Positions 1-773 of a stretch of 773 nt of DNA are shown here, piece after piece. Location of the stretch: assembly GCF_003334765.1 (NCBI RefSeq), contig NZ_QOWT01000100.1; one strand, given 5' to 3'. The notes beneath the pieces were generated by a model. That model was not told the DNA's origin and made no database searches. It saw only the letters and a list, made by a program, of their open reading frames with translations. Each line of letters opens with the position of its first letter. Positions within the stretch are counted from its first letter, which is position 1. A program made the translations under genes and the position numbers. Origin of the DNA: Escherichia coli (GTDB taxonomy: Bacteria; Pseudomonadota; Gammaproteobacteria; Enterobacterales; Enterobacteriaceae).

Positions 1-773
1 CACATGCTGAGGGTGCTGTCCGGGTGCAGCTCCGGGTCGGGCAGGCGGTTACCTGCCGGGTCTGTGGCATACGGGATGCGGATATCCAGATTCGCTGCGG
101 TGGTGTGAACGCCGGTCAGCCTGCCGGTGGTGCTGTAGCTGTAACTCCGGGTCTGGCGCGGGCTGCTGATGCGGATGAGTTCGCCGTTGTCGTTCCAGGT
201 GTAATCGCGGTCAGACAGCAGGCTGTTCAGGTGCTGGCTCTGTAACTGCCCGGCAGGGGTATAAGCGGTGGTGAGTTCATAACGGCCGAAGCTGCGCAGC
301 GTTTCCCGGTGCAGGCGGTCGCGGGTGTACTCCACCAGCGGTGTGTCGCCGAGTTTCATGCCTGACAGCCAGCCGCTGCCGTAGGTCAGCCATTCCACGG
401 CGGGCAGGCTGTCCGGTATACAGCGGTTCGCCAGTCCCTGTGCGTTGTACGCATGTCTGGTCTCATGCTGCCAGAGCAGTTCATTCGTCTGCGGATGATG
501 CACCGTCAGGTGTTCACTGGCGAGGCGGCCTTTACTGTCATAACCATAGTGCACCGTCACCCGGTGCCCTTCGCTGATATGGCTGATGTCTGTCAGCCAG
601 CCGCGTTCGTCATACTGCCACCGCTCTGCGGTTTCGCCATTCACGGTGCGGTGCGTGAGGCGGTCTGCTTCGTCATAGTGCCAGTGGGTGACCAGCCCCT
701 CATCCTCGCTGCGGATAAGTTTGCCGGTCAGGTCGTGGTGATAACGCTGTGTGCGGCCGTCAAAGCCGGTTTC
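1..773 (-). CDS. rhs: Rhs-family core protein (YD-repeat polymorphic-toxin scaffold), internal fragment; both ends lie outside the window
   Basis: Seen in sequence: the reverse-complement frame with codons at 773..771 down to 5..3 is open for all 257 codons (nt 1-2 are a partial codon). The translation carries repeated YD-repeat motifs, e.g. WHYDEADRLT, WQYDERGWLT, HYGYDSKGRL, YTWNDNGELI, YSYSTTGRLT, YATDPAGNRL, and is rich in Y, D, G, R, T and H. Third codon positions are mostly G/C. Established knowledge: this motif array defines the Rhs / YD-repeat shell family. Assignment to the enterobacterial Rhs core is by recall, not a database search; the paralog (rhsA/B/C/D-like) cannot be resolved, so the symbol is given at family level only. 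Confidence 0.9.
42..743 (-). repeat. Tandem YD-repeat array at protein level, about 21-22 codons per unit, at least 10 units
   Basis: Seen in sequence: anchor tyrosines fall at protein residues 11, 33, 54, 78, 109, 131, 149, 171, 191, 213 and 235 (residue i occupies nt 774-3i to 776-3i), mostly 20-24 residues apart, each followed by a D/N-x-x-G-(R)-L-like segment. Nucleotide echoes of the repeat exist, e.g. ttcgtcata at 606-614 and 669-677 (63 nt apart, encoding YDE on the minus strand). Boundaries of the array are approximate and it probably continues beyond both window edges. Confidence 0.75.

Follow-up and report, generated by a model that had tools for sequence, protein, structure and literature searches.

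For the 773-nt stretch of Escherichia coli DNA analysed here (the window, at its full length), the question is which gene its YD-repeat frame, open from one edge to the other on the minus strand, belongs to, and whether such a segment can tell what cargo the gene carries. The window is almost certainly the middle part of the conserved, G+C-rich core of an Rhs polymorphic-toxin gene of the E. coli subfamily rhsABCF (clade I), with the sequence type of rhsC. As such it is an ordinary, well annotated and multi-copy segment of an already described gene, and knowledge of the Rhs elements in strain K-12 goes back to 1984. The organization of these elements into core, tip, immunity gene and orphan modules, together with their evolution by C-terminal displacement, has been published (PMC2935791; Poole et al. 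2011, PMC3150448; PMC8636562), so that the identification in itself matters little.

Family membership and YD repeats

The translation of the minus-strand frame aligned with positions 675-937 of the 1261-position NCBIfam model RHS_core (NF041261) at E=4.1e-162. The fragment alone scored 541.7 bits, under the curated equivalog cut-off of 2000 bits, only because it covers 263 of the 1261 profile positions; the complete rhsC of K-12, which holds the identical sequence, scored 2680.1 bits against the same model, above the cut-off. Tandem YD repeats of the YDxxGRL(I/T) type are present in the window, with a match to the TIGR01643 YD_repeat model at E=4.7e-8 (best stretch at residues 13-52 of the translation) and three matches to the Pfam RHS_repeat model PF05593. 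The repeat at residues 14-48 (positions 630..734, minus strand; PF05593 i-E=5.8e-5, also TIGR01643) contains HYDEADRL, and that at residues 54-88 (510..614, minus strand; PF05593 i-E=0.003, also found by motif scan) contains GYDSKGRL, the motif QYDERGWL beginning one residue before it at residue 53. The third, at residues 193-226 (96..197, minus strand; PF05593 i-E=6.6e-5), contains NDNGELIRI and YSYSTTGRLTGV.

The core-end motif PxxxxDPxGL is absent from the window translation, in which the sole DPxG is DPAGN at residue 238, and the core/tip junction therefore lies outside the window; as the gene is on the minus strand, its 3' end is to be sought to the left of position 1. On these points the original prediction, which had read the window as an internal slice of an Rhs core with canonical YD repeats, an uninterrupted minus-strand frame and an off-window junction to the left, agrees with the profile matches and with the perfect identity to codons 667-923 of K-12 rhsC described below. 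It had also named an absence of Rhs hits in a homology search as the outcome that would speak against it; the search was run, and Rhs matches were obtained instead. The window itself is devoid of cargo, of the core/tip junction and of regulatory elements.

Relationship to the rhs loci of K-12

In a megablast comparison with 5426 complete E. coli genomes, the window was matched in 3901 of them, at a median of five places per genome, and it is identical over 773 of 773 nt (100%) to rhsC of K-12 and of many other strains. The match in the K-12 record NZ_CP011343.2 occupies nt 1999-2771 of rhsC and residues 667-923 of the 1397-residue product. Positions 1..773 (minus strand) thus constitute an internal segment of the rhs core open reading frame, spanning codons 667-923 of the 1397-codon frame and ending with a partial codon at bases 2-1. 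The K-12 gene (rhsC, b0700) shares with the window the frame, the YD repeats and an atypical G+C content of ~62%, and no difference was observed between them inside the window.

The remaining rhs genes, taken from K-12 MG1655, are more distant. Both rhsA and rhsB show 95.99% nucleotide identity to the window (31 mismatches each and no gaps by blastn), and their tips and putative immunity genes (yibA, yhhH) differ from those of rhsC. All 31 substitutions separating rhsC from rhsA and rhsB are located at positions 272..771 (minus strand) according to both blastn and a profile in 250-nt bins, and nt 1-271 are identical across the three genes. The rhsD and rhsE genes, which belong to subfamily rhsDE, are 77% and 78% identical to the window, respectively, with an indel; they share the family and architecture of the window's gene, although rhsE is a 5'-truncated pseudogene that spans just part of the window. 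Assignment of the window to one locus works inside K-12, where only rhsC is identical, but fails across strains. As a separate observation, nt 271/272 of the window forms a sharp edge of a conversion tract among rhsA, rhsB and rhsC.

Identical windows with different cargo

Even though the window is invariant in the matches considered here, the sequences that follow it are not: at the rhsA, rhsB and rhsC loci of other E. coli strains, the identical 773 nt are followed by at least four different arrangements. Four unrelated sequences were encountered after identical windows, namely tips of 150, 164 and 152 amino acids and a 23-aa stub produced by an IS3 insertion. In strain CFSAN061761 (locus extract L002) the identical window resides at the rhsA locus, on the yibF side, in a gene that is cut by IS3 (L002 8829-10397) 23 codons after the core-end motif; beyond the IS3 element lie the remains of a tip of polymorphic toxin type 34, yibA and additional orphans. 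In strain 54 (L003) it resides at the rhsB locus, on the nikR side, and is followed by the 164-aa tip and then by yhhH. At the rhsC locus of LR-71-1 (L005 5003-9768) a full-length core carries the 152-aa tip that in K-12 belongs to the orphan module, with ybfC directly after it. The rhsC locus of A27 (L004 5001-9768) has the arrangement of LR-71-1, but the gene is frameshifted, and the rhsC loci of both strains are without the C-terminal tip of K-12 RhsC (RhsC-CT) and ybfB.

Profiles in 250-nt bins revealed that the cores are mosaic. The gene at the rhsB locus of strain 54 (L003 5003-9238) is of rhsC type over gene nt ~1750-3000 and of rhsB type elsewhere, and the gene at the rhsA locus of CFSAN061761 (L002 5003-8815) is of rhsC type over nt ~250-3000 with a 3' end of rhsA type; the rhsC-type tracts of both genes span the whole window. 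Such mosaics suggest that the loci exchange sequence by recombination or gene conversion, the property to which Rhs elements owe their name (PMC2935791). Because the cores are mosaic and identical copies precede different tips, the window does not reveal which cargo follows it.

This bears on the best of the alternative explanations, according to which the window belongs to the same family but to another locus or strain context, either a gene at the rhsA or rhsB locus or an rhsC locus with a different tip, so that the cargo is not RhsC-CT/YbfB. Such a placement is supported by the identical copies in CFSAN061761 (rhsA locus), strain 54 (rhsB locus) and LR-71-1 and A27 (rhsC locus) and by the mosaic structure of the cores across loci; nevertheless it appears somewhat unlikely, as 22 of 30 among the 100% matches listed are annotated as rhsC, two of the five unnamed 100% matches that were inspected also sit at the rhsC locus, and the only identical copy inside K-12 is rhsC, with rhsA and rhsB at 96.0%. 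The rhsC locus with the K-12 tip is accordingly the most frequent context for the window, although not a certain one. For genome scans, it follows that a window from an rhs core, being multi-copy and mosaic, cannot predict the adjoining toxin/immunity module, and that the flanks have to be read.

Downstream organization of the K-12 rhsC locus

The off-window part of the original prediction, which placed a core-end motif, a divergent tip, a small open reading frame and an orphan module to the left of position 1, was checked in the K-12 context (locus extract L001 of NZ_CP011343.2), and all of these elements are present there. On the right, K-12 rhsC reaches 1998 nt past window position 773, and on the left 1423 nt past position 1. 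Residues 1238-1247 of RhsC form the core-end motif, PISNIDPLGL, which ends 970 nt beyond position 1, again on the left, and is enclosed by the Rhs-associated core domain TIGR03696 (residues 1170-1247, E=1e-23). A PxxxxDPxGL motif was also found in the genes of CFSAN061761, strain 54 and LR-71-1. After PISNIDPLGL the K-12 protein continues into a divergent, AT-rich tip of 150 aa with lower G+C content; next comes ybfB (108 aa), and the start of ybfB and the stop of rhsC share one base.

Beyond ybfB there is a 5'-truncated orphan core fragment (L001 11553-13073; RHS_core positions 908-1261, E=3e-230), which has a junction motif of its own, PVQYIDSMGL, with serine replacing the proline of DP. The fragment ends in a different tip, of 152 aa, and is followed by ybfC (189 aa) and then by three remnants of ISAs1-family (H-repeat) transposases. 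The G+C content reflects this modular structure: it is ~0.60-0.65 in the core, drops to 0.33-0.49 over the tip and ybfB, goes up again over the orphan core fragment and comes down once more over the orphan tip and ybfC. In each of the contexts described, a small open reading frame (ybfB, ybfC, yhhH or yibA) occupies the place after the tip that is expected of a candidate immunity gene. The organization of the K-12 rhsC locus is the textbook layout of Rhs elements (PMC2935791, PMC3150448, PMC8636562).

The 5' end of the orphan falls within the part of the core that the window covers. Window positions 1..77 (minus strand) are present twice in the K-12 rhsC locus, the second copy being 100% identical and located at the 5' start of the orphan fragment, 1.9 kb downstream; by blastn, positions 697-773 of the reverse-complemented window correspond to L001 11568-11644 with 100% identity. 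Perfect identity between the orphan and the main core starts at L001 11568, or plus-strand nt 77 of the window, and a base-by-base view of the junction places the boundary of homology at window nt ~77-92; upstream of ~nt 92 there is an unrelated AT-rich spacer that follows ybfB. The core/tip structure, the displacement of tips and the evolution of Rhs elements by C-terminal displacement were set out by Jackson et al. 2009 (PMC2935791). Under that model, a circular intermediate would have brought in a core fragment starting at what is now the 5' end of the orphan, and this end would mark a past tip-displacement breakpoint.

Comparison with LR-71-1 fits this model in two respects. The main genes of K-12 and LR-71-1 differ by one base up to L001 ~9950, and from L001 ~10100 onwards the LR-71-1 gene shares its polymorphisms with the K-12 orphan, from which it has 10 differences versus 68 from the K-12 main gene. 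These polymorphisms are consistent with two origins of the LR-71-1 locus: it may show the state before displacement, or it may have arisen by deletion between the two copies of the core.

Proposed mechanism and delivery

A search of PDB sequences with the window identified T6SS Rhs cage effectors as all of the closest matches, led by Tse5 (8cp6, E=1e-20, residues 1-246), with further matches to 8qja (E=3e-18), Tse15 (8uy4, E=3e-14) and Rhs1 of P. laumondii (7q97, E=3e-10). Nearly the whole window (residues 1-246) aligns to YD repeats of the mid-shell in all four proteins, which are distant homologues from other genera, with N-terminal and toxin domains that differ from those of the window's gene. 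No structure of an E. coli protein of the rhsABCF type was returned by the same PDB sequence search. For Rhs effectors, the shell, the PxxxxDPxGL motif, autocleavage and mounting via PAAR have been described (Jurenas et al. 2021, PMC8636562).

[quoted passage not shown] An aspartyl autoprotease at PxxxxDPxGL would cut the toxin from the shell, the N-terminal prePAAR/PAAR region would mount the protein on the VgrG spike in T6SS-proficient strains, and the small downstream gene would protect the producer. In contrast to the identity of the window, its family, its position in the gene and the downstream organization in genomes with an identical copy, all of which were directly observed, the cage fold, autocleavage and T6SS delivery are carried over from the literature, as are the putative roles of RhsC-CT as toxin and YbfB as immunity protein. 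The N-terminus of RhsC begins with MSGKPAARQGD, with a literal PAAR at residues 5-8, and contains DUF6531 (E=5e-18); its match to the Pfam PAAR_motif is weak (E=0.18). The 7 kb upstream of K-12 rhsC contain neither vgrG nor hcp, nor a gene for an Eag-type chaperone.

K-12 is generally held to lack a T6SS; the literature search gave no explicit statement to that effect, only the report that MG1655 encodes no known competition system (PMC10761095). Delivery may therefore not operate in this strain, and K-12 rhsC probably does not serve that purpose. In Salmonella, rhs tips have internal promoters and behave as type II toxin-antitoxin modules, the full-length gene being silent (PMC7043789), and an internally expressed, toxin-antitoxin-like role of this kind is possible in K-12 as well.

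A broader form of this explanation would place the window in a disrupted or silent rhs copy, that is, a pseudogene or a gene whose product is never delivered. The role of such a copy, if any, would be that of an internally expressed selfish or toxin-antitoxin-like module and of a reservoir for immunity genes, not that of a contact weapon. This explanation draws on the identical windows in the frameshifted gene of A27 and the IS3-interrupted gene of CFSAN061761, on the fact that T6SS genes do not adjoin K-12 rhsC, and on the internally transcribed, toxin-antitoxin-like tips of Salmonella (PMC7043789). However, the 1397-codon frame is intact in K-12 and in most matches, the window is without a sigma-70-like promoter, and what was found in Salmonella applies to sequence immediately upstream of the tip and not to this part of the core, all of which makes a silent copy unlikely.

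RhsC-CT, YbfB and the orphan tip

In the K-12 context, RhsC-CT and YbfB are encoded at L001 10744-11522, off-window. The RhsC-CT tip, RhsC residues 1248-1397, is 150 aa in length with nine cysteines; it had no match in Pfam or NCBIfam, and its PDB sequence search yielded nothing at E≤1. For the 152-aa orphan tip, the PDB search likewise yielded nothing at E≤1 and Pfam returned just an insignificant match to OCRE (E=0.019), and neither YbfB nor YbfC was assigned to an NCBIfam family. About three hydrophobic segments are present in YbfB and one in YbfC, where it is N-terminal and resembles a signal sequence. The cysteines of RhsC-CT and the hydrophobic segments of YbfB and YbfC hint that the tips may be candidate envelope-directed toxins.

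Both modules are common in the species. Of the 5426 complete E. coli genomes, 2536 carry the RhsC-CT/ybfB module and 3518 the orphan tip/ybfC module, or about half to two thirds. The suggestion that a novel toxin/immunity pair would lie off-window was not borne out, since no such pair was seen in any sampled context and the K-12 modules are widespread. In the searchable literature, no functional study of ybfB and no test of RhsC-CT toxicity or YbfB protection was found. It is conceivable, though doubtful, that RhsC-CT/YbfB constitutes a toxin/immunity pair of undescribed and perhaps envelope-acting function, or that the source strain carries a tip unseen in the sampled contexts. Any residual novelty would lie in the flanks or in the activity of RhsC-CT/YbfB, and not in the window itself.

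Alternative readings of the open frame

YD repeats as such are common to Rhs, teneurin, wall-associated and Tc-toxin families, and on this ground the window could in principle derive from a YD protein with no polymorphic tip, such as a teneurin-like or wall-associated (WapA) protein or the TcB/TcC shell of a Tc toxin. This is extremely improbable in view of the 100% identity to annotated rhsC, the 2680 bits of the complete gene versus the RHS_core cut-off of 2000 and the presence of the junction motif, the tip, the open reading frame in the immunity position and the orphan. The PDB matches point in the same direction, as they are all of Rhs type (the named T6SS Rhs effectors and chains deposited as Rhs-family), and no Tc-toxin, teneurin or WapA chains are among them. 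A non-Rhs YD-repeat protein is thus refuted by the identity to rhsC, the full Rhs organization and the RHS_core score, and the original preference for Rhs over a teneurin-like or wall-associated protein proved correct. Nothing contradicts the identification of the window as an rhs core segment.

With regard to the coding evidence, the minus-strand frame read from base 773 has no stops in 257 codons, and the remaining five frames contain 2-13 stops each. Since the window is A-poor with 62.1% G+C, and since 9 of 1000 dinucleotide-preserving shuffles reproduced a 257-codon open frame in one of the six frames, the open frame alone is modest and insufficient evidence; it is homology, and not the openness of the frame, that is decisive for coding identity. 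No sigma-70-like promoters were found in the window and one terminator-like hairpin was found versus 0.6 expected, both counts being at background level; an Rfam search gave no match at E≤1, and no plus-strand feature in the window is annotated in any genome record inspected. The notion that G+C-rich composition opened this frame by chance and that the real feature is on the plus strand, to which the shuffles and the few stops of plus-strand frame 3 lend some color, has a negligible probability and is refuted by the minus-strand homology (E=4e-162), by the annotation of the inspected records and by the Rfam and background-level results just given. Plus-strand frame 3 itself has just two stops in 257 codons, yet neither annotation nor homology points to a gene in it, and this low stop count in an antisense frame is probably a by-product of G+C-rich codon usage.
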